64,000 bases of DNA, taken from NCBI GenBank assembly GCA_951406725.2, contig OX597843.1:21018001-21082000 (forward strand). Reading direction: 5' to 3'. Under the pieces are notes generated by a model. That model was not told the origin of the DNA and searched no databases. It worked only from the letters and a program-made list of their open reading frames with translations. Origin of the DNA: Octopus vulgaris. Its lineage: Eukaryota. Shown in pieces: positions 8,772 through 64,000 of this stretch (the stretch's first letter is position 1; each line of letters begins with the position of its first letter). The position numbers and the translations under genes are program-made.

Positions 8772-11420
8772 GGACCTGGTATCGAATTCCAGATTGGGGA
8801 CATCAGGACCTGGTATCGAATTCCAGATTGGGGACATCAGGGAGAGAGAGGTGAATGACTTCGTAAGAAAAGCTAGAGCAAAGTGTGCCGCAGGAGGTGA
8901 TGGCGTCTCATATAAAGCCTACAAGTACTGCAATCGTCTGCGAAAGAAACTCTTCGTTCTACTCCGAAAACTGTGGCGCAAGGAGACTATAGTAGAGGAT
9001 TGGTGTAAGGCAGAGGATTGGTGTAATATACCTGCCGAAAGAGGCCAATGCAAAGACCATAAAACAGTTTAGGCCGATATCCTTATTGAATGTGGAAGGC
9101 AAGATTTTTATGGGAATTCCGTCGAGGAGAACAGTGACATATTTACAGAGTAAATCTGTGAATCTGAGTAAATCTGTGAATCTGTTCAAAAGGCCGGAAA
9201 CCCCGGGATCCCTGGATGCGTTGAACACTGTTTTTCGATTTGGAAAGCGATCCAGGACGCCAAACAGAACAAGAAAAGTCTGAACGTGGTAAGGCTCGAC
9301 CTAGCTAACGCGTATGGTTCAGTGCCACACGAATTACTAATAACAGCCATGGACCACTTTCATATTCTTGACAAAGTGATCAAAATAATGAGGATGTACT
9401 ATGACAGTTTCGAAATGAGGTTTACACCTGGAAATTGTACAACAAATTGGCACCGATGAGAGGTTGGCATTGCTGCTGGCAGTACAATATCTGTCACATG
9501 GTTTTTCTTGGTCATGGAGTTGATTTTAAAAGGTGTAGATTTTCCGGAACAAATCGCCCATGTACAATCGCCTAAGAAAGCCTTCATGGATGACGTGTCA
9601 CTTCTAGCTACAGATAAACAAATCATGCAGAATGACCTCTTGAGATTAGACGAACTTGTAAGGTGGTCAAGGATGCGATTTAGAGCAAAAAAGTCGTGTA
9701 GTCTGACATTTGTTAAGGGAGTCAGAAAGAATTTAAGTTCCGGATATCTGAAGAAAGCATTCCAACAGTCAAGGAAGAGCCCGTCAAGAGCTTGGGACGA
9801 GTATACGCTGGAACATTGTCAGACAGAAGTCATGGGATTGAAATTATGAAACAGGCCGAGGCTGGGTTATCAGCGATTGATAATTCGAAGTTACCAGGTA
9901 AATATAAAATTTGGTGCTTGCAGTTCAGCTTGTACCCGCGACTTGCGTGGCCACTTTTAATATACGAAGTTGCATTGTCACGAGTTGAAAGCATTGAAAA
10001 AAAATGTAATGTGTTCATTAGAAAGTGGCTAGGCCTACCTCGTATGTTGAACAACTCAGCTCTTTATCATAAAAGAGGTTCGTTGCAGCTACCAATAGCA
10101 TCAATATTCGAACTATATAAGCTGGGGAAGATACGGACGGTCATGATGCTGAGAGAATCGAAGGATATGGAAATCAGGCGTAACCCACCAGAGATGAACA
10201 CAGCCAGGAAGTGGAAAGTAGAAGCAGAAACTGACGACATTTTGTCTTCTCTTATACACAGAGATATGGTGGGAACAACGCAGAATCATCGGAAAGGACT
10301 TGGTTTTGGCGCAGATCAATTCAGACCGTTTGCAAGCATGATGAGGAGTGAACGCAGATCTGTTGTTAGCAACAGCGTCAAAACAAGAGAAGCAGAGAGA
10401 AGAGATCTTCATTTGATCCGATGTGTTCATCAAGGTCAGATGACGAGGTGGGAAGAACATGTTGTTGAGAGGAAGATAAGTTGGGATGAGATGTGAAAGT
10501 GGACGACATCTCGGCTGAGTTTCCTGATTCGTTCATCTTATGATGTTTTGCCATCACCTACGAATCTAGTAAGATGGAACGTCTTAGAGAATGTGGAAAG
10601 GTCGGTACACTAAAACATATTCTTTCCAACTGTTCATTAGCATTGAACAGGTATACCTGGAGGCACAACTTGGTCCTTAAGGTTATCTTCAATGCTATAA
10701 AGTACCAAATTCATCTCAACAACACTGAGGAAAAACCGTTGAAAGTACCATCAAGAGATTTCATTAGGTCAGCGGATCCGTTTCAAGAAGTATGGTCAAG
10801 AAACCTCCTGAGAAAAATGAAAAGTGGAACGGTTATTGGGAGGTAACTGCAGATTTACCTGGGTGCCAGGTTTTCTTTTCCATCCCAGTTTTGAAAAAAA
10901 CATATATTTTGATGTGGTGTGAAAGAAAGAAAGTTGTAAATATAGTCGAGCTAACGGTTCCTCATGAAGATAATATGAACGCCGCTCGGGCTCGAAAATT
11001 GAACCGTTATGAAAACCTCCTCGAGGAATGTGAAGACGCAGGGTGGAAAGCGGAACATTTTCCTAGCGAAGTCGGATGTAGAGGGTTTGTTGGATACAGC
11101 GTGAGACGACTGTTGTTATCGCTAGGCCTAACTCATCGTAAAGTCAATACCACTATGACTGATATCCAATCTACAGTGGAGAAGGCTAGCCACTGGATTT
11201 GGTTAACAAGAGACGATGAGCGATGGCTAGAAGTATATTGAGTTTAACTTCATAACCAGCTGATCTAGCAAGCGGGGCCTCATATCAGTGAGGGGGGCCG
11301 GTGCGAATTGATGCCGTCGAGAGGTAGGCCCCGAAACGGCGCGCATTCTCTCCTGATGACCCATACACTTGCTAGCTTCCGGTATACGGAGCTTTCAACT
11401 GGTAGCACGAGCATGTGCAA
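8772..11420 (+). mobile_element. 5'-truncated Hero-clade non-LTR retrotransposon (RT, zinc knuckle, RLE), degenerate
   Basis: RPISLLNVEGK, LDLANAYGSVPH, KAFMDDV, LPGKYKIW..YPRLAWPLLIYEV, RYTWRHNLVL, VELTVPHE..EVGCRGF; several stops and frameshifts. Confidence 0.9.
11265..11375 (+). ncRNA. Candidate structured RNA with permuted hammerhead core in Hero 3' UTR
   Basis: gccGTC at 11313-18 pairs with GAAAcggc at 11333-40; gagag pairs with ctctc directly before CTGATGA (11353-59); outer pairing ctagcaag/cttgctag. Confidence 0.4.
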
Positions 11421-14255
11421 GTTATTTGCAAGACATATATATATTCAAATAAATTCTCACTCTCTGATCCACAGATCCAGTTCACAGATCCTTGATGATC
11501 CTACTAATGGAGAGTAAAGACACACGAAACCTAGAAAAAAACCTCTATGAATAAATTATGTAAATGTCCCGCCCTGTGATTTGTATTTGTTCCTCAAGAT
11601 GAAGGAGTTGAAGGGGACTGTAACAGGGGTCCTGGAGACACTCCCTTTCAGATGAGATTTCAGCTTAGGCCTGTAGATTATTTTTCGAAAGCTGCACCGT
11701 GAGAGGTTCCACAGTTTAATGTGCCCCTTGGTTATCCAAACGGTAATCGATGCGAGATGAAGAACTGATTTTAGTATAAGTCATTTACGCAATTCGGAAG
11801 CTTAATAACACCTACGTTTGATAGGTCCGAAGACGTCAGTAGTAATACTGTTTGGAAACATGGCGGTTCTGTCCACTGACATGACAGAGGTTCCTCTGTC
11901 AAGCATCATGTCTATGTTACCGTTGGTGAATGAATGAGGTTCAAACTAAGACTACGCCTGTCATATTGTTTCATATGGCTTCAACTCTATGCGTAAAGTG
12001 AATGAAGTATGGGTGTTATGCCTTGTCAAAGTGCAATCCGTGTTTGGTCCAGTGCAATGTTTTATCCATATTAAGCATACCCAAACCCTAAACCTAAACC
12101 TATATTTAGAGGTTGTTCCCCATTCTATCACTTAAAGTATACTCATATGCAACAACAAGCTATAGAAGAGTACCTCTCTGTTAAATAATTTTGCTGAATT
12201 CAAATGTGGAATCCATTTTTTAGGATTACGTCTAGATTTCAAGATACCCAAACCCTCAATTTTCACTATTTTCCTCATATTTAAGGGGAAATATATTGGG
12301 AAATGTAGTACGAATGTCTATTATGGTTTATCGATTATTTTATTAAAGGTCTGGTGTAAACATCGGGTAATGAAATAATGGCCGCAGCGAGCATTAGTCC
12401 CAGGGTATTTTAATGTGAATGAACAGACTTTAGTTCAGCCGGAGAAAATCATCCAACATCCATGTCTTATCAAGGCAGATTGTAATTAAATACGATGCTG
12501 GGCTATTGAGGTTCAGCACTAATGAAAACCATTCGAACACAAATTCATGAAAAAATAGGCATGAACAATAATGTAAACTGTCTGTAGAAATTTAGAGATA
12601 TTTGCTAGCTTTTCAGTAGAAGTTCAAAACATCCTAGCTTTGAAGACAATGCAATTTCTATGTATATTAGTACGTTCTTCATAAGCTGGTTTATTCGAAA
12701 ACAAAACAAAGACATTCTCTGGATCCAGTATCTTACAATTCTGATGTGATCGTATTAAATTGATGTCCGTTTCGGATTCTGTGTGTCAAAAGACTCCCAG
12801 TTCGTCTCCAGTTATTTCGTTCGCCTGACGATATTCCCAAATTATTGTCTTGAATAAAGTTCAAATTGTTTATACACCAAGAACAGGGATTTATATTTTC
12901 ATACCATTGAATTCTGACAGATTTCATATTTTCTTTCAAATAGGAGTAAAGCAGGCTTGAAACCGATTCACAGGATGACCAAGTCTAGAAGGAAGGGGAA
13001 AAGATGATATTCTTCAACTGAAGAATGTTTAAGACAATATGGACTACACTAAAGGCACTTAAAATTACTAGGTGGTGGTTTTGAACAGAGATGTGTTTTA
13101 AGACTACCATTGAAATAGATAATTAGAGACAGAGGAAGGATACAGCATAGCCGTGGACATGGTGTTGAAACACGGTCATTTGTAATGGGCTGAAGATTAG
13201 ACAAGTGTCCTTCAAAATCTTACTTGTAAACTTACACTTCGCTGAGCATTATTAGCAGTGAAGATCTTTCTTGGCGCAAGTAGATCCTTTGCATAGCTAG
13301 TACGGCATTTTAAAGTCCAATCCTTCTCTTTGCAGCCATAACTTCAAACCATTTACAATGCTCAAGTGAAGCACACAATGAAGAAATCTTTCTACATCTG
13401 GAAGGGTGATACACATCCGGGATTGCATCGAAAGAAGGGTGACGTGGCTAAATTTTACTCTATCCCTAATAGACATACTCTAACAGCTATCTCGCAGGCA
13501 GGATATCTCTTCTCTTTGTTTTGCCACTGTCACTGTCATGCTACAGATTCTTGTAGGAGTTGGCTGAGCTCTTGACCCCAGCAAGCAGGTACTACCGACT
13601 CACTCGTCTATTCCTTTGCTCCTCGATCTTAAACATCAGTTCGTTTTCAGTATGAACCTCTGTGCTAAACACTTCAAACCCTTCATCAATCCTGCAAATG
13701 TTTGCCTGTAGCAGCTTAAACGGAACGTTCATGGTATCTATCTCAGATTTCATTCAATTCGCGCTTAAATTATGAAAGATGAAAATATCTAACTTATTAA
13801 ACAGAACATTGACTTTGCTATTCCACATCTTCAGATTTACGAGGTTTAAAGAATAACATTAAAAAAACATTGCTATTTGATTTACATTAGGATTTCTCAA
13901 ATGGTCAAAACGTTCCAAATTTGTTGACAAATGGGACTGATCGAATGAATCGATCCACTTTAGTATTTGAATATTTGATTAAAACTTGAAGTGATTAGTG
14001 CTGTGTTGCGAAGAGCGAGAGAAAAGATGGAGTAGAGGGAAAAAGCGGGTAAGGTGAAGAGCGAGGGAAAAAGAGGCAGAGAGAAAAAGAGGGAGACAAA
14101 AAGAGGGTAAGAGAAGCGTCTATGACGTGTGGTAGGGGGAACGTAATAGTTATTACGTGGTTAAAAATGTTAGTTGAAGGTAGTGATATAGAGGAGAGTG
14201 AGAAACAGAATTGTAGCAGAGGATCGATGTTCTGATGGTGAGATTAAAGAAAGGC

Positions 14256-17055: not shown

Positions 17056-20000
17056 TCCTATGTATAAGAATGAGAACGTTTGTTACTGATTAAGGAGTGT
17101 ACGAAGACAAGGTTTGATATGGAAATTGGCTGGCGAGATGCTTTATGCACGTCTTCCGGGGTCATTCACGGGTCCGTTGTAGGATAGATAAGTAAACATA
17201 TTGTAGCATTATATATAGCCATTTAAAACAGAATTATAGGACGAAAATATAGGTGTAGTATTTGAAATGGATAGAGTGGTGTTTGAAGGAGAGGAAGGCG
17301 GAAGATATTGTTTTTACGTTGCAAAATAATCGTAGACCACGGTTTGCTCGTCGAGTTGGTAGAACTAATTTGGCTTTAAAATCTAAGGACGGCGAGTGAA
17401 GTGGGAGATAGTAGTAGTAGTAGCTTTCATCTGAGATTATTATGTGAGTCCGTATTAGTTCACACGCGCGTATATGGTGTGCGTCTGTAGAATCTAGTAG
17501 CTGTGCACGCGTGCCTGGGTCCTTGTATATTATCATATACTGAGGGATGTGTGTAGAGAGAGAAGAGTTGAGAAAATTTATGACGTATAAACGATAAGGA
17601 AAACAGGTTGGGAATTAAAAAATGAAACAATAACATGTTTAGGAAATGTAAAGGTAGATAAACAGTTGTTTACTGCATCGATATATGGAGCAGGATATCA
17701 GTTGGGGTGCAAGGGAGTTAGTTAGGGGATGACACAGGGGTGGGTGGGGTATTGTTGCTATTTGGACTTAGAATATGAATTGCATAATTTGTGTCGAGAA
17801 GTAAATATTATGCTATCCCGTTCATTTCAAATATTTCCTTAATGCGGGCAGTGATGAAACCCGTTTGGATACGATAACTACGACAGAGTTTAGGAGACCT
17901 GGCGTTGTGGTTGGTCGAAAAGTTGGCGTATTTGAGGTTCTCCTTAAGTTTTTGTCATGGGTGGAAGCCGACTGTCCTTTGTTTCGGAAACCTATCGGTC
18001 ATACGACTGCCTGCAGTACCCCCTACTGTTTCCCCTTTGGAGAGGATGGCAACAGCTTTCACCAACGCCATGTTGATCCAATCACGGGTGCTGAATTAAC
18101 CAAGGCTGTTTCCTGCAAGGAATTCTATGCCTTCCGTCTTATGGTCAGAGGAGGTCAGTTCAACCAACTACTACGGTACAAGGAAGTCACAAATCAATTC
18201 TTGGTTGACATGTTTGCCAAGGCTGAAGGTGAAAGGCTTCTTTGTATTCGTTAAAATCAAAACAGATTGCGTGTGGATCGATATCTTACCGTTCATGTCC
18301 AGCTGTATGTTAATGCAAGAAACATAGGCCTTCCGGTGATACTTACTTCCAGCCATACCGGGTCTCGACGGTATAAGCATCAGCGGACACAGGATGCCAT
18401 GGCATATGTCCGTAAGTTTAGCGAACCTGACCTCTTCATCACCTTTACGTGCAACTGAACTTGGAGGGAGATAACGGAAAACTTATTCGAGGGCCAGGCT
18501 GCATGCGACAGACACGACTTAGTTGCTAGAGTTTTCCATGGAAAATTGCAGAAATTTATGTGGCTATTGAAACATGATGCTGTCTACAGAAAACTTAACG
18601 CGTGCATTTACACAGTAGAATGGCAAAAGCGGGGTCTTCCACACGCCCATATACTGATTTGGTGTCAAGAAAGAATCAGACTTGCTGACATAGATAAGAT
18701 TATATGTGTAGAGCTGCCTGACCCTAATGTCAACTTGCAGGTATTCCAAATAGTGTCGGCGCATATGACACACGGGCGCTGTGGTGTCTTGAATACTAAT
18801 TCTCCGTGTAATGAAAAAAATAGATGTTCAAATAACCATCCCAGGGCTTTCAACAGGGCTATATGTACTGGTATTGATGGCTACCCAATTTACTGACGAC
18901 GTGCCCCTGACTTTGGAGGAATTTCGGCGCAAAAAGTATAAAGAGTAAAGACATTGCCTTCAACAACATTATGGTTGTTCCCTACAGCCCTGTCTCCCTT
19001 AAAAACTTCAACGCCCACATCAACGTTGAATCTTGCACCTCGATTAAAGGCATCAAGTACATATGCAAACATGTAAACAAGGACAGCGACATGGCTGCTT
19101 TGGGTGTGCAGGATGAAGAGACAGCCAACGATGAAATCTTTCAATATTTCGTCCAATATGCCGGCATGGCGCATTTTAGGTTTTGATATTCACCAGTCCG
19201 CTGCATCTGTTTTTGGCATAAGTGTACACTTAGAAAATAGGCAACGTGTTTACTTCACTTGGACTGACAAAAAATGTGAAAGGCGGCGGCAGGATGTGCG
19301 AATCGACAATGAGGTCGGCGAGGTAATCTACAATGGAAACATGATCGGTCGTGTCCACACTGTACACCCAAAGGATCAGGAGTGTTTTTTGCGGATGATT
19401 CTGTTTCCTATGAAAGACCCAACATCATTTGCCCACGTCAGATTTATTCGAAGGACAAATGTGTTGCACTTACAGGGACGCTTGCTTGCGACAGTGACTA
19501 CTCGAGGATGAGGGTCTCTGGAACACGGTATTGCAAGAGGCCTCTGAATGCAGGACACCAGAAGCAATGCGCCGAATATTTTGTCTCATCTTGCTATTCA
19601 GTAACGTGTCTAAACCTCTTCATTTCTGGGACACATTTAAAGATAGTTTTTCCGAAGATTATCTCCGACGACTTCAAGCCGAAGATCCAACGGCTGGATT
19701 CGACCTCAATAACGTCATCTACAACACAGCCCTCCTTTATTTGCAATCGCGACTGCAAGCTATGGGAGGAGTTGGCGTCCTCAGATTTCAGTCGGCCGTC
19801 TCCGCGGGATATTTCAAATGCTTTAGCTGCTGAGTACATGTGAGAGATGAGCTACAACACGCAGGAAATGGTGGTGCAGGTTGCTCAGGACGAGCCCAGA
19901 CTTTTGGAAGTACAGAGAATTGAATACAAAAGGTTCTTCACCAGTGGTAATTCCAACGAAGGACAATTTTTTTTCTTGGATGTTCCCGGCAGAACCGGAA

Positions 20001-21826
20001 AAAACATTTCACATGAACCTCCTACTCGCCAAAATTCGTCAGAAAATCCGAATTCTTATAGCGGTTGCATCCAGCGGCATCGCAGCAACTCTACTGCATG
20101 ACGGTCGTACGGCACACTCAGCATTCAAATTACCACTAGACTTGACCAAACAGGGAAATCCAACTTGCAATGTTAATCGCGGCTCAGCCATGGGGTATCT
20201 TCTCACTGAGTGCAGCCTTATCATTTGGGATGAGGAAGCCATGTGTTATAAGGCAGCATTTGAGGCGCTCGAACGGTTTCTTCAAGACCTGAGACGGAAT
20301 ATGAGAGTGGAGAGGGGAGTGATTGTTATACTTGCTGGCAACTGCCGACAAACTCTACCTGTCATTCCACGGGGGACAAGAGCTGACGAGGTAAATGCTT
20401 CCATAAAATCATCCTACTTATGGCACCACAGCGAGAAACTTCACCTGACTACGAACATGAGAGTTCACGTGTTTGGCGACGAAAATGCGGCCACATTCTC
20501 GGCGCAGCTTCTCGATGTTAGTAATGGAACTGTATCTGGCAATACTGATGGTTTCATCCATTTACTATTTGGTAACTTCGAGCCTAACGTAGATGATTTA
20601 ATTTCTTTAGTTTTTTTCCTGACATTGCAAGCCAAAGCCTTCACACAACTTGTTTACAAGAAGAGCAATTTTGGTGCCTCACAATAAAACAGTCGATGCT
20701 ATCAATAATAAACTTTTTGATCTCCTTCCTGGAGAAAAATTCTCCTTCAAGTCCATTGACACGCATGAAAACCCGAATGATATGTCCGTTTTCACAACAG
20801 AATTTCTTAATTCCCAAACGCCCGCAGGACTTCCGCCTCACGAACTCCATCTCAAGGGTGGCGTCCCATCATGCTGCTGCGGAATCTGGATGCTCAAATA
20901 ATGTGTAACGGCACCCGGATGATAATAAAAAATATATACACCCGAGTTCTGCAGGCAACCATCTTGAATGGACCAGCCACTGGTCAAGATGTTCTTATAA
21001 CCCCAATATCCCTCACTCCCTTCGATACGATCTACAAATTTAAGCGGCTTCAATTTCCTATCAACCTCTCCTTTGCAATAACAATAAATAAGGCACAGGG
21101 TCAATCATTGCAAATGGTTTGTTTATATCTCACAGAGCAAGTATTCTCGCACGGTGAACTCTCTGTTTGATGCTCCCATGTTGGCAGCAAACAAAGTCTA
21201 GACATTTGTGCATCAGAAGGGAAATCGAGAAATGTGGCCTACAAAAAGAGCTCCTCTGAAAAGATAGCATTTCTTCACATCTTTCAAATCACCCCAGTCA
21301 TCTGCTGTCACAAAAGCTTCGTAGTCACCATGCCAGCCAACGTATCTCAATAACACACACCTTCACTCATTCACCCTATCTCTCTTTCTCTCTCACATAC
21401 ACATGCGTAAGTACGCACACACACACACACGAGTTCATTTCACATATCTTTCAATTTCTGCTCTCTGAAAAGAAAATTTTTATGGATACGACGGCTTACA
21501 AAAATAGGGATTAATGTATAATTTCTTTCTATCTTCATAATTAAATAAATGTTTTAATGATTAGATAGTGGTCCAATGCAATAGCTCTCAGAAACAGACT
21601 ACGTACAAATTCTTTCTTCACATCTCCTGAAGCTGTTTTCTGACAGCGGGTGGGGTTGTGATGGAAAGAAATTTTCATATAGCTGGAGGCTCCAATCGAA
21701 ACGAGGTACCCGAAATGATAAGGTTGAGAAACGCTGTGAGAAACGCTGCTATAGATTATGCCAAGCCAAAAACGATCACACCCACATCATCCAAACAGAC
21801 CGGGTGAAATCGGGCTTAACTGCTAG
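17056..21826 (+). mobile_element. Helitron with both termini
   Basis: 5' A|TCctatgtataagaatg at 17056; 3' imperfect hairpin ccgggtgaaatcggg followed by CTAG|T at 21823-26; RepHel coding relic in between. Confidence 0.8.
17985..21260 (+). pseudogene. Helitron Rep (HUH/Y2) - PIF1 helicase, frameshifted
   Basis: PDLFITFTCN, VEWQKRGLPHAHIL, HINVE..IKYICKHVNK, FFLDVPGRTGK, VASSGIAATLL..GRTAHSAFKLP, IIWDE, LTTNMRV, FAITINKAQGQSL..VFSHGEL. Confidence 0.95.
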
Positions 21827-44320: not shown

Positions 44321-46414
44321 ATATATGCTCATGTGCCTCCATATATATATATATATGTACACGATGTTGGACCCGGCTTTACTCGTGTTTTCCGCGTGGA
44401 AGTTAAGCCCACCTCTGACCTTGTATCGAAATCTTCTACATTCCCTCTACCAACTGTTACCAATTAAGATGTTATATCTGATTCGGCAGCCATTTTACCC
44501 GCTTAACGCTTTCGACATACTCCTACATACTGGACAGTCTGGGTGTACTTTTGGGTGTACTTCGACACATTGAGAGTGATGTCTGTTTATTTCTCCCCCC
44601 TGAATGTCATTCTTGGTACAAAATTAAGCAGTGTGTCCAATCTGAGTAAAATCTAAAGAAAAGTGGTAAGGTTGTGTCATAAAATAGAATCCATGTGACC
44701 AGTTACATGAAAATATTCCATTGACATTTTAATCTCAATACGTTATATAAATAACCGACGTTTTATATGTCAAAGTGCTTAATTTTACACACTGTTCAAT
44801 TTTCTTCAAAATCAGTTCATTATTTTATTGTGAATAATTTTGACGATTTCTGCCTTTCATCATTTTAATTTTAATTCTACTACATGACTCAGGCCTTAAA
44901 CTTTACCTAAAAGTCGAAGTTCATCAAAATCGGATGAATTGTGTAAAAGTTACAGCATAAAATACTAATCCTATGGGTGATTGCATACAATAAGCCGATT
45001 GATATTTTTAAACGCAGTTATCGATTTTTTGTCAACTCTTCATCTGGTATCAACTAATGGACATGAGCTGTAATCACGTGTAAAATTTCTACAAAATCGT
45101 TAAGAATGTCTGTAAGGAAATGCTTATGTACATTTATGCCCTTTTCAAGCTCTTTTGAATTAAATAAATACATGTCCCGTATCCCCCACCAAACATTTAC
45201 CTACACTTCGTATTTCATTAAAAGCGGATGAAAAATATGTAATTTACGGCCAAAAATAAAACCCCTATGGGTATTTGCACGCAAAACGTCTATTGATTCT
45301 ATAAAACCACTGCTCCGGCGCAATTACCAATTTTTCTCTCAACGTCATATACTGAAATCAACTCACTGCCATGAGCCTTGCTCACTCATCGACTTTCATT
45401 AAAGTTGGACAAAAAATGCAAAAGCTGCTGGGAAAATAACATCGTTATGGGAATATTCGAGGTTAATGAACAAAATTTTAAAATGTCGCCATTGTTTTCA
45501 AATTAGGTTTCACATTTTGTTTGAAAAAATGTGTGGATTACAATGCTGATCACCGATTTCCAAAATTTTTCTGTTAAAACTTTTGTTAATGCCTCGTTAA
45601 AAAGCATTGGCCAAAATCGGTACCGCTTGGGATTGGGGATTTGAAAAAAATGAAAACACATTCAAACAATTTTAAAAGACCTTCCTGCCATCATTTCAAG
45701 CGTTGCGGTGAAAAAAAATTGAAAATCTTCACCAGAGCGAGTGCAGGAGTGGCTCTGTGGTAAATAGCTCGCTTACCTCATTGAGCATGTGCGAATCAGA
45801 GTTGTGTTTGATACTGAAACTATAAAGACGTGTTTTTGAAGCCGTCTTAAATTGAAGATTTTTGAAACTCAGCTGTACAGTAAGACTTTTTTGGGGGTCT
45901 AGTCGGGGCATGTTGTCTACCGCAATTATTTTTTGCAAACAAGAAGTCCTCACTGGATTCTAGTCTACCTGTAGCTGAGCGGATATTTTTTCAATTAACT
46001 GTGAAAATTATTGTTTTGTGGGCGTATCCTGCAGCAAAATTTTGTTTGAGATTCGTGTTTGTCCAGGAATAACTCTGGGAATTTTTAGAAAAGATTTCAA
46101 CAATATTGTTCCTGTTAAGGATTACCTATGAGAAGAAAATTGGAATGATTTGCGTTAAAATTTTGACCTGGAGTACCAAGTGTCCTTTACTGTGCTTTGA
46201 ACTGCTGCTCTGTCTTCAACCCTCTTTTATTTAAAAAAAAGACTCTTTATTGAACTGTTAATTTTTTCTCCTTCCTTTTTGTTTAGACTTTTTCTCTTCC
46301 TTCTTTATCCTTAATTATTTTGTATTTTATGAAGTGTTTTTTGGACTTTTTTAAAAAGAAACATGGCAAAGAACAATGGAAAGTAGGTGGAGTGGGAATT
46401 TATACCACCCAAAA

Positions 46415-47698
46415 GATGATTAAAAGAACTTGAAAGTAAGACGGTGGTTTTGAGGACCAACTCTAGGATCCTCGACTCCATTGCCGTTTTCAAAAAATAG
46501 AATCCAAAGAGAGATGGCAGAATTTCTGCCATCTCTCTTTGGATTCTATTTTTGAAAACGGCAATGGAGTCGAGGATCCTAGAGTTGGTCCTCAAAACCA
46601 CCGTCTTACTTTCAAGTTCTTTTAATCAGCTTATCACTCGGAGGGTCAAATATGCAACCGTGTGGTACTATTTTACTTCCCAGAAGTGGATTGTGATTTT
46701 GCGTGCCAGCTCCTGGAAGGCAATGAAATTTTGTTTCTTCCCACTTATTGTGGGAAGAAGTTGACGAGGGCTTGGGTTTGCGGCTTTCTACCCGGTGCTG
46801 AGCCCGAGTGGATAGGAGATACTATCCGCCGGGGTCTGGGTGGCAGTAGCACCAAGCTCTTCAATGCAAATATTCTGCCTGCGGCTTACTGGGAGGTGTC
46901 AAAAGCTGTTTTGACCCTCTGGACCAAGTCAGCCGAAAGTCTGGTATTTCCAGACTTTTTGAGAATTGGCTGGTCGAAGTAACCGGTGATGCTTGAGGGA
47001 GCCCCCCTCCAAGTGTAATCGGTGCCTGGAGACTCGCCATATAAAAAAGAACTGTCCTCAACGGCAAAGCAAAATCCTGGAGCGGTTAACGGAGACCTCT
47101 GTAGAAGAAGGAATGCAGGCGGCCGAAGAGACAGAGGATGACTCAAAGAAGAGCCGCAAAAGGAAGAAGGTGAGTAATAATGGGTGCTCACCGAAGGATT
47201 CTGGGAATGCGGGAGGAGAGGCACATGTTCCGGTCACGGACGAGATGCACCCTCCCCCAGTCAAGAAGTAAAAAGAGGATAAAGGAGAAACGGGATATCC
47301 CTGACAGTCGGAGACATGAAGCCTCATCGGTCTGGGTCGTGCCACTGGCGGGGCGGCGTGGGTAGACACACTTGGTAAGAATTGTTCCGCCAATGGTAGG
47401 ATTGACTACCTCGGACCCGCAGGAGGAAGAACTGCTGTACTTCTGTTATAGAGGGGGAGTGGTGGAAAAGGTGGTGGTAGAACACTACAAGGGAGTACCT
47501 TTGGCCTTCGCACGGTAACCCGAATGGCCTCCGCAGATGGCTGTGGAGTTCATAACGTTGCGCATATTTCATAGGCTGGGTGGACTAAAAGAGGAATATC
47601 ACTCGTGGCCGGGTGACGCCAACTCGGAGCATACCTTAATTTTAAAGCTAGCATGGGCGATGCTGGAGTACACGTACACAAGCGATGAAGACGATTGA
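46415..47698 (+). pseudogene. Duplicate of the CCHC ORF1/gag-like relic
   Basis: KCNRCLETRHIKKNCPQ; homologous to 1935-3129. Confidence 0.65.
46417..46628. repeat. Near-perfect ~212-bp palindrome
   Basis: Arms 46417-46522 and 46524-46628, 1-nt centre, one homopolymer-length difference. Confidence 0.95.
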
Positions 47699-53410: not shown

Positions 53411-56080
53411 AAAGAAGAATTGGATGCTCATATCAAGGAAGCCTACAACGATCTGCACCGTAACCAGCCGCTGCCACCTCTACATGGGCTAAATCATCTC
53501 TCAGGACCTGATATCGAATTCCAGATTGGGGACATCAGGGAGAGAGAGGTGAATGACTTCGTAAGAAAAGCTAGAGCAAAGAGTGCCCCAGGATGTGATA
53601 GCGTCTCATATAAAGCCTACAAGTACTGCAATCTTCTGCGAAAGAAGCTCTTCGTCCTACTCCGAAAACTGTGGCGCGAGGGGACTATAGTAGAGGATTG
53701 GTGTAAGGCAGAATGTATATACCTGCCGAAAGAGGCCAATGCAAGACCATAACACAGTTTAGGCCGATATCCTTATTGAATGTGGAAGGCAAGATTTTTT
53801 GGGGAATTCCGTCGAGGAGAACAGTGACATATTTACATAGTAACGGATATGTTGATGAATCTGTTAAAAAGGCCGGAATCCCCGGGATCCCTGGATGCGT
53901 TGAACACTGTTTTTCGATTTGGAAAGCGATCCAGGACGCCAAACAGAACAAGAAAAGTCTGAACGTGGTAAGGCTCGACCTAGCTAACGCGTATGGTTCA
54001 GTGCCACACGAATTACTAATAACAGCCATGGACCACTTCCATATTCCTCACAAAGTGATCAAAATAATGAGGATGTACTATGACAGTTTCGAGGTTGGCA
54101 TTGCTGCTGGCTGTACAATATATGTCACATTGTTTATCTTGGTCATGGAGTTGGTTTTGAAAGGTGTAGATTTTCCGGTACAAATCGCCCATGTACAATC
54201 GCCTAAGAAAGCCTTCATGGATGACGTGTCATTTCTAGCTACAGATAAACAAATCATGCAGAATGCCCTCTTGAGATTAGACGAACTTGTAAGGTGGTCA
54301 AGGATGCGATTTAGAGCAAAAAAGTCGCGTAGTCTGACATTTGTTAAGGGAGTGCAGAAAGAATTTAAGTTCCAGATATCTGAAGAAAGCATTCCAACAG
54401 TCAAGGAAGAGCCCGTCAAGAGCTTGGGACGAGTATACGCTGGAACATTGTCAGACAGAAGTCATGGGATTGAAATTATGAAACAGGCCGAGGCTGGGTT
54501 AACAGCGATTGATAATTCGAAGTTACCAGGTAAATATAACATTTGGTGATTGCAGTTCGGCTTGTACCCGCGACATGCGTGGCCACTTTTAATATACGAA
54601 GTAGCATTGTCACGAGTTGAAAGCATTGAACAAAAATGTAATGTGTTCATTAGAAAGTGGCTAGTCCTACCTCGTATGTTGAACAACTCAGCTCTTTATC
54701 ATAAAAGAGGTTCGTTGCAGCTACCAATAGCATCAATAGTCGAACTATATAAGCTGGGGAAGATACGGACGGTCATGATGCTGAGAGCATCGAAGGATAT
54801 GGAAATCAGGCGTAACCCACCAGAGATGAACACAGCCAGGAAGTGGAAAGCAGAAGCAGAAACCGACGACATTTTGTCTTCTCTTATACACAGAGATATG
54901 GTGGGAGCAACGTAGAATCATCGGAAAGGACTTGGCGCAGATCAATTCAGACCGTTTGCAAGCATGATGCGGAGTGAACGCAGATCTGTTGTTAGCAACA
55001 GCGTCAAAACAAGAGAAGCAGAGAGAAGATATCTTCGTTTGATCCGATGTGTTCATCAAGGTCAGATGACGAGATGGGAAGAACATGCTGTTGAGAGGAA
55101 GATAAGTTGGGATGAGATGTGAAAGTGGACGACATATCGGCTGATTTTCCTGATTCGTTCATCTTATGATGTTTTGCCATCACCTACGAATCTAGTAAGA
55201 TGGAACGTCTTAGAAAATGACATCAGCAAATGTGGAAAGGTCGGTACACTAAAACATATTCTTTCGAACTGTTCATTAGCATTGAACAGGTACACATGGA
55301 GGCACAACTTGGTCCTTAAGGTTATCTTCAATGCTATAAAGTACCAAATTCATCTCAACAACACTGAGGAAAAACCGTTGAAAGTACCATCAAGAGATTT
55401 CATTACCTTCGTGCGACCAGGTCAGCGGATCCGTTTCAAAGAAGAAGATCAAGAAACTTCCTAAGAAAAATGAAAAGTGGAACGGCTATTGGGAGGTAAC
55501 AGCAGATTTACCTGGGTGCCAGGATTTCTTTCCCATCCCAGTTTCGAAAAAAACATATATTTTGATGTGGTGTGAAAGAAAGAAAGTTGTAAATATAGTC
55601 GAGCTAACGGTTCCTCATGAAGATAATATGAACGCCGCTCAGGCTCGAAAATTGAACCGTTATGAAAACCTCCTCGAGGAATGTGGAGACGCAGGCTGGA
55701 AAGCGGAACATTTTCCTATCGAAGTCGGATGTAGAGGGTTTGTTGGATACAGCGTGAGACGACTGTTGTTATCGCTAGGCCTAACTCATCGTAAAGTCAA
55801 TACCACCATGACTGATATCCAATCTACAGTGGAGAAGGCTAGCCACTGGATTAGGTTAACAAGAGACGATGAGCGATGGCTAGAAGTATATTGAGTTTAA
55901 CTTCATAACCAGCTGATCTAGCAAGCGGGGCCTCATATCAGTGAGGGGGGCCGGTGCGCATTGATGCCGTCGAGAGTTAGGCCCCGAAACGGCGCGCATT
56001 CTCTCCTGATGACCCATACACTTGCTAGCTTCCGGTATACGGAGCTTTTAACTGGTAGCACGAGCATGTGCAAGTTGTTT
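53411..56080 (+). mobile_element. Hero-clade non-LTR retrotransposon (duplicate of 8772-11420)
   Basis: QFRPISLLNVEGK, GIPGCVEH, KAFMDDV, RYTWRHN, VELTVPHE, IEVGCRGF. Confidence 0.9.
55918..56028 (+). ncRNA. Second copy of the permuted hammerhead-like Hero 3' UTR motif
   Basis: gtgcgc..gccGTCgagag..ggccccGAAAcggcgcgcattctctcCTGATGA. Confidence 0.4.
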
Positions 56081-59940: not shown

Positions 59941-62800
59941 GTTGCTGACCCGCCACAGGCCGCCTGCTTCATTGGGTGCTTGGAGCTAAGAGTTTGACTT
60001 GAAAAACGGCCTGCAACCTCTGCACCAGGCAAACAACTAAAAGACAAGGAACCACCAATCCTGCGGTTAGCAAGCTTGAATGTCAGGACCATGTGCCCTG
60101 GCATATCTGATGATCTACTCAGGGTTGAAGACACAAGAAAGACAGCCATCATTGACCGTGGGATAAAGAGGCTTAACACAGACACTGCTGGGCTGCAAGA
60201 GACAAGACTTCCCTCAAACGGCAAACTCGAAGAACAGGATTTCACCTTCTTTTGGCAGGGAAGCGATCTAGAAGAACCTCGTCCGCATGGCGTTGGCTTT
60301 GCAGTGAGAAACTCATTACTCTCCTCAATAGAGCCCCCATCAGGAGACACTGAGCGTTTCCTCTCACTGCGCCTCTCGACTTCTTCTGGTTCAGTACATC
60401 TACTGAGCATCTATGCTTCCACTCTCTATAGCCCAGAGGAGACCAAGGACCAGTTCTACGAAGATCTCAACTGTGTCATTTAAAATTTACCAACAAATGA
60501 AAACATCTACCTTCTAGGAGATTCGTGGCAAATTTGTGTTGGACACCCTGATATTGGCAAAATGAATGACAATGGTGAGAGACTACTTGAAATTTGCACA
60601 TACCATAACCTGTGCATCACCAACACATTCTTTGCCAACAAGACATCACACAAGGCATCTTGGAGAAATCCAAGATCTCACCACAGGCATCAGATGGATC
60701 TCATCATTACACGAAGATCCTTTATGAATTCTGTTCACCTGACCCGTATTTACCACACAAATCACTCACTAATTGGAAGCATGGTGAGGATCCTGCCTAA
60801 AAAAGTCCATCACTTCAAGAAAATGGGCCGACCACGCATTAACACTGCCAGAAACCCCGACCCTACACTGCGACAATGTTTTGCTATTTCTATCAAAGTT
60901 GCCCTCAGTAGCTGCCCAACCTCCTCTGCTGAAAGTAGGTGGAATTATATTAGGGAATCTTTGAATACCATATCAATAGATACTTTCGGCATGAGAGAAA
61001 GTCAAAACCCAGATTTTGTTCAGTGCTGGGCTCTCAGAGCTGGAACCAGTTATCAAAGCAAAGCGTGCAGCTCTGATGCAATACAAGAGTGATTCTTCTA
61101 CAAAATCACTAGAATAAATCTGAAAGGCAAAAAATATAACCCAACTGACAGCCAGACACTGTGCAAAGAGGTATTTGGCAGGTAATCTGTCAGAGTATCC
61201 AGTCAGCTGCCGACAATGGCGACAACCGTGGGGTGTATGCCGGTTTGAAGAAGGACCCTTGGTCCATCCGCAACCAAGTCAGCCCCTCTGAAATCAACTA
61301 CTGGAGATCTCATCAAAGACCAAAGCAAGAAAATGGATTGATGGGTGGAGTACTACCAGGATCTCTACTCACGGGAGACCACGGTAGCTGAGGCTGCAAT
61401 CGAGAGTGTCAAGATCTTGCCAGTCATGTGAGAACTTCACAGTCCACCATCTATAGCAGAGCTCACCAAGGCTATTGACTCCCTAGCAAGTAACAAGGCT
61501 CCGGGAAAAGACGGCATCCACTCAGAGATAATCAAAGCCGGCAAAAACACCATCCTGCTTCGGCACCATCATGAGCTTCAGTGTCAGTGCTGGGAAGAGG
61601 GTACAGTTCCTCAAGATATGCGGGATGCTAACATCATTACGCTTTACAAAAACAAAGGTGACTGTAGTGATTGTAACAATTATCGTGGAATATCTCTTCC
61701 ACGCACTGTTGGAAAGACCTTTGCTCACGTTTTCCTGCCCAGGGTACAACTGCTTGCTTCTCGAATTCATCCGAAATTGCTGTGTGGCTTTAGAAGGAGC
61801 AGATCAACTATTGACATGATATTCTCCATACGCCAACTTCAGGAGAAGTCCAGAGAGCAGGAAATGCCATTACATATGGCCTTCATTGGTAAGTAGAAAA
61901 GGCCTCTTCATCCTGCTCCAAAAATCGGATGTCCACCAAAGCTGCTGAGGATCATGAAATCTTTCCATGACGATATGCAAGGCACCATACAGCACAATGG
62001 TTCAACAACAGCCGCCTTCCAAATAAAAAACGGAGTAAAGCAAGGTTGTGTCCTTGTTCCTACATTATTTGGCATCTTCTTCTCGCTGCTGCTCTCACAT
62101 GCCTTTCAGACATCAGATGATGGAGTGTTTCTGCAGAGTAGAAGTGAAATGCTATTTGCTGATGATGCCGCTCTGGTATCACACACAGTAGAAGCCCTAC
62201 AAAGGCTCATCAGCTGTTGTGAGCAGGCATGTAACGATTTTGGCTTAGCTATCAGCCTCAAGAAGACCAACATCATGGGTCGGGCTATACCGGACATCCC
62301 AAACATACATATTGGAGACCACAGATTACAGGAGGTGGAGAGGTTTACCTATCTTGGCTCTACCGTCACCTACAACCTATCCCTTGATGTTGAGCTCAAT
62401 ATACGCATTGGCAAAGCATCTGCTGTGATGGCCCAACTCTCGGAACGAGCATGGGACAACATTAAGCTGACCAAGAACACAAAAATGAAGATTTATCAGG
62501 CATGTGTACTGAGCACTCTACTGTATGGAAGTGAGACTTGGACGCCATTCACACGCCAAGAGCGTCGCCTAAATATCTTTCACCTGCGCTGCCTCTGGAA
62601 AAGCCTTCGCATCAAATAGCAGAATCATGTCCCCAACAAAGATGTCCTCAAGCAAGCAGGAATACCAAGCATGTTTGCACTCCTCACACAAAGACGTATG
62701 AGATGGCTTGGGCATGTTAGCCGTATGAAAGATGGCAGAATCCCCAAGGACATACTCTACGGAGAGCTTGCTAGGGGCACTAGGTCTGTGGGAAGACTGC
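59941..62800 (+). mobile_element. RTE-clade LINE (APE endonuclease plus RT), degenerate, 3' end interrupted
   Basis: NVRTM, GLQETRL, HGVGFAV, KDQFYEDL, NDNGERLL, TNTFF; KNKGD.SDCNNYRGISL, GVKQGCVL.PTLF, LFADDAALV, FTYLGS, LLYGSETW, RWLGHV.RM.DGRIPK. Confidence 0.92.
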
Positions 62801-62809
62801 ACTATATGG

Positions 62810-63930
62810 AAAAGCCGTGCTGCAATTACCAATAACTTCAATCGCCGAAGAATATAAAGCAGGAAAGGCAAGGACAGTAATGATGCTAAGGTATTCAAAA
62901 GATCAGAGCATCCGGGAAAATCTTTCAAAGGTACGATCAGGGAGGAAATGGAAGGCGGAAGAGGCAGTAAACAGGGTGATAGAAAAACTAAAGCACGCAG
63001 ATATAGTCGGAGCGACGCAAGAAGCTACAACCGGCCTAGGGTCGCAAAATTTCAGGCCATTTTGCAAGAGCAGTGTAAAAGAGATGAAAGAGGCATTGGT
63101 ATACGAAGTGAGAAAGGAGGAAGAAGAAAGGCGAAATGTACATTTTGTGCGATGCAGTTGAAATGGACAATGCCTGAGATGGCAGGAATATGTGATGAAC
63201 CGCAGAATATCATGGAAGGAACTTTAGGCTTGGGAACAAGCAAGAACATCCTTCCTGATCACCGGCGAACTTAGTCCGGTGGAACATAAACAAAACCGAT
63301 GAGTGCAGATGCGGAGAGAAAGCGACGGTTAGACATGTTCTGTCAAGTTGCAGACTAGCACTTGATTTAGTTCTATGGAACAGAGACCGGAGAATGGGAA
63401 TTTTACTAGAACTGACAGTACCATAGGCAATGAAACTAAAGGAGAAGAGGTACGAAAAGCTAATAGAAGAATGCAGAGAACAGGGATGGAATGTCGAATA
63501 TTATCACCTGGCAGTTGGGGATAGAGGCTTCATTGAAAAGAAAATGACAACGCTTTTCAAAATAAGATTTGTTTTCTCTAGCCCCGAGCTGCGTAAACTA
63601 ATAAGGAGAGTACAGGAGGCGGTCGAGAAAGCCAGCTTCTATATATGGCTGAAGCGGGAAGACCGAAAATGGCATGAAAGTCATAAACACGCCGACGGGA
63701 AATAACATCATTAGGTGAGACAAGCTGACTGACAGGTGACGGTCGTTTAGAAAAAGCGCGGGCTAAAACTACTAGCCTTCACTAGTCAGTTAAGGTGGAC
63801 AGTGTCACGTGACAACTTGCTGGGGCTTACAGCCGGAGCCTGCCGGTAGGCATTTGGGATGTAAGATTTGACAAGTCATTCAGTCACCGACTGACACTCA
63901 CTGACGATACATCGAAGAGGCCAGGGAACA
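62810..63930 (+). mobile_element. 5'-truncated Hero-clade element, different subfamily
   Basis: LQLPITSIAEEYKAGKARTVMMLR, SGRKWKAEEAV, LELTVP, GW..VGDRGF, EKASFYIWLKR; protein-level similarity to 9792-11241. Confidence 0.85.
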
Positions 63931-64000
63931 GAAGAAAGAAGAAGAAAGAAGACACATACCCAGCACCAGAGCTGGAGACACCTCCGAAAGTGGGGGGGGA

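Follow-up and report, generated by a model that had tools for sequence, protein, structure and literature searches.

We describe a putative hammerhead ribozyme of unusual strand order in the 3' untranslated region (UTR) of a Hero-like retrotransposon from Octopus vulgaris. The DNA analysed is a stretch of 64,000 nucleotides (nt) of contig OX597843.1 (positions 21,018,001 to 21,082,000), hereafter the window, whose own numbering is used throughout. The motif or part of it occurs at three places:

8803..11436, + strand: 5'-truncated, frame-broken copy of a retrotransposon lacking long terminal repeats (non-LTR), of the restriction-like endonuclease (RLE) type (family 1, Hero-like); its open reading frame (ORF) stops at 11241 and the element ends at about 11436
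55918..56028, + strand: second copy of the motif, a segmental duplicate of the first and not independent of it (sequence, model match)
63945..64000, + strand: 5' part of the same fold in a degenerate copy of a second, distant Hero-like family (covariance model match L035:2946-3071, E 4.6e-6)

The host element and its copies

RVT_1 was detected in the window copy, and intact relatives have frames of 1146 (L032) or 1175 amino acids (L270:5605-9132), in which a single ORF encodes an N-terminal C2H2 finger, a reverse transcriptase (RT), a CCHC knuckle and restriction-like endonuclease motifs (PD-(D/E)xK-type end). The best solved relatives of the protein, from PDB matches, are R2 proteins, and its named homologues come from fishes and lancelet. 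Insertions are dispersed over many contigs, with unrelated 3' flanks among L014-L030 and mostly without target-site specificity, some being flanked by (TA)n; the 3' end of family 1 gave 2496 first-look candidates in the octopus genome (G000, 2.8 Gb). We presume that Hero, the name used in the original prediction made for this DNA, is the right one. The label fits the domain order and the dispersed insertion. Members of the HERO clade are likewise described as dispersed elements with a single ORF comprising an N-terminal C2H2 finger, RT, CCHC and a PD-(D/E)xK-type end (PMC4640811).

The motif strands lie 24-134 nt 3' of the stop codon at 11241. Both window copies of the motif are inside one duplication of ~44.6 kb, in agreement with the original prediction, and share a 3' flank that is common to 13 of 30 loci of the same genome, both window copies included; they are therefore not independent. 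The motif of the second family starts at about 63945 and runs ~70 nt past the end of the window, so that the CTGACGA at 63901, formerly taken as the motif of this third element, is irrelevant. Better copies of family 2 were found elsewhere (L045, L049, L050 and L054), with stem II written the other way round.

Strand order of the motif

Read 5' to 3', the motif consists of strand Y', hairpin Z, the 5' strand of stem II, the 5' strand of a helix Px, stem III, UH with the cut, stem I, a short linker, the 3' strand of stem II, GAAA, stem III, the 3' strand of Px, stem I, CUGANGA and strand Y:

11265..11277, + strand: Y' (11265-11272 and 11274-11277), pairing with Y 3' of CUGAUGA and closing the domain (sequence; pair probability 0.92-1.0 for the outer seven pairs)
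11278..11293, + strand: hairpin Z between Y' and stem II (11278-11282 with 11289-11293; sequence; a hairpin at this place in most parsed relatives)
11294..11299, + strand: stem II 5' strand, beginning with G10.1 and upstream of the cleavage site (83.5% paired, co-changes)
11300..11306, + strand: Px 5' strand (85% paired)
11313..11323, + strand: block S, with stem III 5' strand (11313-11317), U16.1 (11317), C17 (11318) and stem I 5' strand (11319-11323; alignment columns)
11324..11326, + strand: linker of 3 nt from stem I to stem II (sequence)
11327..11340, + strand: block G, with stem II 3' strand (11327-11332, ending in C11.1), GAAA (11333-11336) and stem III 3' strand (11336-11340; alignment columns)
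11341..11359, + strand: Px 3' strand (11341-11347), stem I 3' strand (11348-11352) and CUGAUGA (11353-11359; alignment columns)
11360..11375, + strand: Y (11360-11362 and 11368-11375), directly after A9 (descriptor parse, alignment, co-changes)

All the motifs named in the original prediction are present in both copies, namely the GUC ending at 11318, GAAA and CUGAUGA, together with stems I (11319-11323/11348-11352) and III (11313-11317/11336-11340) in register around the GUC and the outer helix ctagcaag/cttgctag (11265-11272 with 11368-11375). Cleavage is predicted 3' of C11318. It had also been proposed that the two would-be stem II strands each pair with an upstream strand, which is borne out, but the partner of 11327-11332 is most likely the second ggggcc (11294-11299) rather than the first (11274-11279), because the two nearest relatives, L056 and L057, keep this pairing with changed letters.

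Helices Y, Z and stem II abut without spare bases in most families, as judged from the descriptor parse, which points to a four-way junction in which stem II can stack on the core. The loop of Z is often UGAUCA or close to it (alignment A3) and thus resembles the CUGAUGA core; a tertiary contact is one possible explanation, a duplication relic another.

Relation to known hammerhead classes

The hammerhead core bases C3-U4-G5-A6-N7-G8-A9 and G12-A13-A14 are present, but, in departure from the class definition, A9 is not joined directly (0-2 nt) to a stem II strand, the strand after A9 forming helix Y instead. The order of blocks, S-G-C, matches none of the orders C-G-S, G-S-C and S-C-G of types I-III, as originally noted. 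The order itself, whose novelty the original prediction could not confirm, is that of type SGC (HRIMA-1 and variants), which Eckert et al. 2023 report only from metatranscriptomes and not from genomes of known organisms (PMC10085705), with cleavage in vitro at 0.007-0.13 per minute. Like type SGC as presented there, the Hero fold combines the S-G-C order and the same core bases with a short linker between stems I and II (typically 3 nt in type SGC) and with a fourth helix that joins the other sides of these stems and sometimes abuts stem III without a spacer. We infer from the text of PMC10085705 that Px is the equivalent of this stem I-II interaction helix.

What is lacking is an intact block C: in type SGC a stem II strand directly follows CUGAUGA, whereas in the Hero fold this strand lies upstream of the cleavage site and helices Y and Z stand between A9 and G10.1. 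Eckert et al. assume that block C cannot be interrupted, and their descriptors require it intact (PMC10085705); for these reasons the published SGC descriptors cannot match the Hero fold, which moreover, unlike type SGC, sits in animal retrotransposons. One may regard the fold as SGC circularly permuted, with the opening placed inside block C, and we file it as an RNA that would work like a hammerhead, yet outside types I-III and SGC. The S-G-C order is already known; new are the parting of stem II from the CUGAUGA block and the genomic setting.

A scan of the window against Rfam, with E up to 1, returned no hammerhead or other ribozyme family among 29 matches. No report of a hammerhead, another ribozyme or terminal repeats in Hero elements was found in the literature covered, outside of which lay subscription journals and Repbase Reports. 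Variants with additional helices are mentioned in PMC13725137 (November 2026), in a passage referring to Eckert 2023, Forgia 2023 and a third source, and a similar fold may be described in the references cited there. Naiad elements are reported to include 'HHR_half_core' cases that fit no descriptor (Craig 2021), which might be of the Hero fold.

Conservation and covariation

Conservation was assessed in metagenome loci picked by the endonuclease domain alone (the best 80 of 216), the endonuclease domains of the compared families being ~35-60% identical. GAAA..YUGANGA was present 3' of the ORF in 61 of the 73 loci with enough 3' sequence, against 10/73 in antisense and 8/80 inside the ORF. A descriptor parsed 54 of the 80 loci, with linkers of 0-10 nt between stems I and II, and a covariance model built from the nested helices matched 71 of the 80, degenerate copies included (29 of the 71 being training rows). 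In L101, L103, L110 and L071 the ORF extends in frame past the endonuclease and the RNA motif is absent within reach. In the first three of these loci the downstream sequence resembles, read by eye, what we take to be a ubiquitin-protease cysteine box. Scans of viral contigs gave two weak loci without a model match and then none.

Alignment A2 was made with MAFFT from sequence only and holds 31 non-redundant rows, one per family (32 anchored loci minus 3, plus 2 families of the octopus genome), the structure string being taken from row L106. The three excluded loci, L101, L102 and L126, had a misplaced motif anchor, and the last two later matched the model. Of the 1092 cells of A2, 78.6% were paired compared with 55.5% after shuffling, none of 500 shuffles was as high, and slid controls reached 38-42%. 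The paired share was 97.3% for stem I, 92.9% for stem III, 85.2% for Px, 83.5% for the upstream stem II, 69.7% for Z and 65.4% for Y, the figures for Y, Z and II being lowered by about 7 of the 31 rows, the window family included, that are misaligned in their 5' half. Compensatory changes were found at 4/4 pairs of stem I, 5/6 of stem III, 5/6 of Px and 4/5 of the upstream stem II. On the protein tree, observed against expected co-changes were 25.5/4.4 for stem I, 20.6/5.6 for the upstream stem II, 18.4/5.8 for stem III and 23.3/11.5 for Y, each above all 2000 null draws. The motif order and the covariation of stems I and III, both named in the original prediction as things to check, thus extend across families, the order in the protein-picked loci and the covariation in the 31-row alignment.

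An SGC-style stem II, in which the strand after CUGAUGA would pair with the strand before GAAA, was rejected, because it is at chance level (42% paired against 41% shuffled) and the strand after A9 forms Y; that these two strands do not pair with each other had been recognised before. Of the earlier alternatives of a pseudoknotted or an intermolecular hammerhead, the pseudoknotted core is the one conserved across families, and no intermolecular partner is needed because all strands are in cis.

Positions 17, 16.1, 10.1, 11.1 and 7 played no part in the choice of rows, and there the alignment can be set against the general rules for hammerheads. Position 17 was C in 11 rows, U in 10, A in 7 and G in none (n=28); U16.1 and the pair U16.1-A15.1 were each present in 28/28; G10.1 was found in 26/28 and C11.1 in 28/31, the upstream 10.1-11.1 pair being G-C in 23 and G-U in 2 (25/28); and position 7 takes all four bases. 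A base other than G at 17, the pairs U16.1-A15.1 and G10.1-C11.1 and a free position 7 across families form the pattern expected of selection on catalysis. The SGC descriptors of PMC10085705 likewise demand UH and CGAAA.

A second and unrelated class of short T-rich repeats in the octopus genome (2584 first-look candidates) has the S-G-C order, an upstream stem II strand and Px-like and Y-like pairings, with a 4-nt strand in place of hairpin Z (L038:1950-2100, L039, L040, L043, L186-L205, L222 and L255-L269). Genome-wide, the pattern is in excess (3609 and 3569 against 801 and 793), which this class helps to explain. In L222 such a repeat is found in inverted orientation beside a GIY-YIG ORF that is truncated. 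The GIY-YIG loci (30 of 148 matches) have no motif 3' of the ORF in sense, so that Penelope is not shown to be the host of the class.

Structure of the insertions

The original prediction supposed that the cut could define the 3' end of Hero RNA. This does not agree with the insertions: copies end ~118-126 nt past the cut site and span it without a scar, with staggered ends and no poly(A), so that the cut is not the insertion end, although it could still set the ends of an RNA intermediate. Between ribozyme and element end, a small hairpin follows helix Y (11376-11391) in family 1 and in the relatives L056 and L057, and is a candidate RT recognition site.

In 24 of the 30 loci that have a 5' UTR, and in 24 of the 25 in which its start is included, the 5' UTR is directly preceded, at one fixed junction, by the 3' end of the element itself; of the remaining loci, five are truncated inside the 5' UTR and one keeps the junction only. 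These upstream repeats range from 22 nt to more than 1490 nt; their start lies upstream of the cut site in 18 of the 24 and coincides with it in none. In each of four such insertions (4/4) the two motifs are 3734-3737 nt apart. Variants common to both repeats of one insertion and absent from the others compared number 2 in L271 and 11 in L272 (over ~700 nt), with one amino-acid change in L270. At their 3' ends, copies continue for 2-8 nt (10 in L270) into the bases found ahead of the 5' UTR. The simplest template for such insertions would run without a break through both the cut site and the junction and be read ~1.0-1.5 times: a circle of unit length, produced by cuts at two ribozymes followed by rejoining.

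The head-to-tail layout, which 10/53 metagenome loci show as well, is, by analogy, that of the pseudo-LTRs of Penelope (PMC8557442, PMC11167929). As described for Penelope-like elements and animal retrozymes, these too have the ribozyme in a 3' terminal repeat and partial-tandem insertions, an internal start of reverse transcription with a short variable tail and a proposed circular RNA intermediate, but their hammerheads are minimal type I and often dimeric, unlike the Hero fold, and Penelope encodes a GIY-YIG nuclease and a telomerase-like RT, whereas the Hero-like element has an R2/LINE-type (long interspersed nuclear element) RT and restriction-like endonuclease motifs (PMC6765202, PMC8557442, PMC11167929; bioRxiv 10.64898/2026.07.22.740005). 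The likeness to the 5' ribozymes of R2, L1Tc, RTE and related LINEs, which resemble that of hepatitis delta virus (HDV), is that a self-cleaving RNA is believed to release a non-LTR element from a transcript longer than itself; according to the same literature these differ in being of another ribozyme class, placed at the 5' end, with a single cut and no terminal repeat needed (PMC6765202, PMC7650587).

In the 5' UTR of Hero elements 4-5 short hairpins stand in a row, with a loop of the GAAAGA type; they are conserved across families (L034:3800-3930, minus strand) and lie downstream of the motif in L058, L060, L098, L106 and L131. Two or more such hairpins occur in 5/66 loci against 0/71 ORF controls, and the row is possibly a protein-binding or translation element.

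Proposed mechanism and alternatives

We consider self-cleavage of the Hero fold probable. A circular template is somewhat better than an even proposition, and we hold with the same leaning the reading as a whole: that a hammerhead core, conserved and covarying and arranged as a split type SGC, with its predicted cut after C11318, likely closes the element's RNA into a unit-length circle that is read more than once. In such a fold A9 would run into Y and G10.1 would be reached from Z, which would bring the core, Y, Z and stem II together at a four-way junction, with stem II still stacked under the G12/A13 pairs. Transcription from an upstream partial copy would yield an RNA with two ribozymes 3737 nt apart, which would be cut to a monomer. 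Y, II, Px and III would bridge the cut site with ~25-30 bp, and because of this bridge the ends of the monomer could re-form the ribozyme and be ligated or crossed by the RT. The RT would begin ~118-126 nt past the cut site, inside a continuous template, and pass round it more than once; the product would be a complete copy with a repeat of its own 3' end, truncated to a variable extent, in front of it.

Several observations weigh against this reading. Nine of the 80 loci have no model match: two end too early at contig ends, four have an ORF running past the endonuclease, and three are unexplained (L096, L128 and L134). That GAAA and YUGANGA do not vary in the 31 rows is in part built in, these motifs having been used to choose the rows. 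Nested folding found no unusual stability relative to shuffles (z -0.24 and -0.06) and gave the upstream stem II a probability of only ~0.1, in a model that takes no pseudoknots; the long plain hairpin that hides CUGAUGA in the nested centroid was set aside as restricted to family 1 and not kept in relatives. Catalysis might be slowed or lost through the chain break between A9 and G10.1, which runs contrary to the assumption made in PMC10085705. No pile-up of 5' ends is seen at the cut site (0/24), so that the template in evidence is not a cleaved linear RNA. Metagenome contigs with a head-to-tail junction can be assembly artefacts, and no tandem junction was seen in eight independent 3' ends of family 2, where few are expected. 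For a Penelope element in vitro, hammerhead mutants are reported to cause no drop in insertion and uncleaved RNA to be the main template (PMC11167929).

We regard as appreciably less probable, although the strongest of the alternatives, an explanation in which the role of an active ribozyme would be limited to cutting the downstream copy free at its 5' end when transcription reads through, and perhaps to aiding translation, as the 5' HDV-like ribozymes of R2 do. Insertions would arise without any circle, from uncleaved tandem RNA or by jumps of the RT from one sibling RNA to another. The structural evidence for the fold applies to it equally, inserted copies do cross the cut site uncut, and sibling RNAs of one source would share variants as well. 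The R2 RT can copy across non-continuous templates. Penelope PAc is described as inserting from unprocessed RNA (PMC11167929). A linear cycle, however, would be expected to erode the upstream repeat and the staggered 3' end in each generation, but repeats longer than 1.4 kb are present and the junction is fixed in 24/24; moreover, the downstream ribozyme would split the RT start site from the ORF unless the two were rejoined. A fixed junction with both ends renewable is thus explained less well without a circle.

That the core is a silent or very slow hammerhead relic, kept as a platform that binds the element's protein in the manner of the pseudoknotted R2 3' UTR, would suit the interrupted chain at A9/G10.1, the absence of any direct sign of cutting and the location in a 3' UTR, which is where the R2 protein binds its RNA (PMC13580325); we consider it improbable, as the identities at positions 17, 16.1-15.1 and 10.1-11.1, and a free position 7, are kept across families whose endonucleases have diverged so far. 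Very much less probable still is the alternative raised in the original prediction, that activity requires dimerisation or a trans RNA supplying the missing stem II strand. Penelope hammerheads are described as acting as dimers (PMC6765202) and tandem copies of the Hero motif exist, but every strand has a covarying partner in cis, and since the strand after CUGAUGA pairs with the strand before GAAA no better than shuffled sequence, a second identical copy would be no remedy.

Other features of the window

Directly upstream of the second Hero-like fragment lies a remnant of a LINE of the apurinic/apyrimidinic endonuclease (APE) type (59998-62830). A PIF1-like helicase fragment (19313-20687) is probably a Helitron remnant, and a perfect long inverted repeat with 84-nt arms (46413-46632 and 1934-2017), which gave a sub-threshold plant microRNA hairpin score in Rfam, is probably a miniature inverted-repeat transposable element.

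Implications

In its widest form the circular-template reading would make this a seventh natural hammerhead topology, SGC opened inside the CUGAUGA block by a four-way junction, present clade-wide in Hero and in at least one unrelated repeat family, and serving as a self-cutting, self-sealing clasp that yields a protein-coding circular RNA of ~3.7 kb, by which an R2-related LINE clade would move through rolling-circle reverse transcription like Penelope; we see the arguments for and against this whole as evenly balanced. If true, the hammerhead fold would be wider than the six permutations thought possible, and the Hero fold would be the first non-circularly permuted hammerhead in animal genomes. 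This would explain why Rfam and descriptor searches miss a fold with thousands of genomic copies. A ribozyme whose products stay clasped by 25-30 bp would be useful for RNA circularisation and for R2-type gene-insertion tools. For the elements themselves, the finding would offer a mechanism, open to test, by which terminal repeats arise in an R2-related LINE clade, and would bear on the open role of hammerheads in Penelope-like elements.
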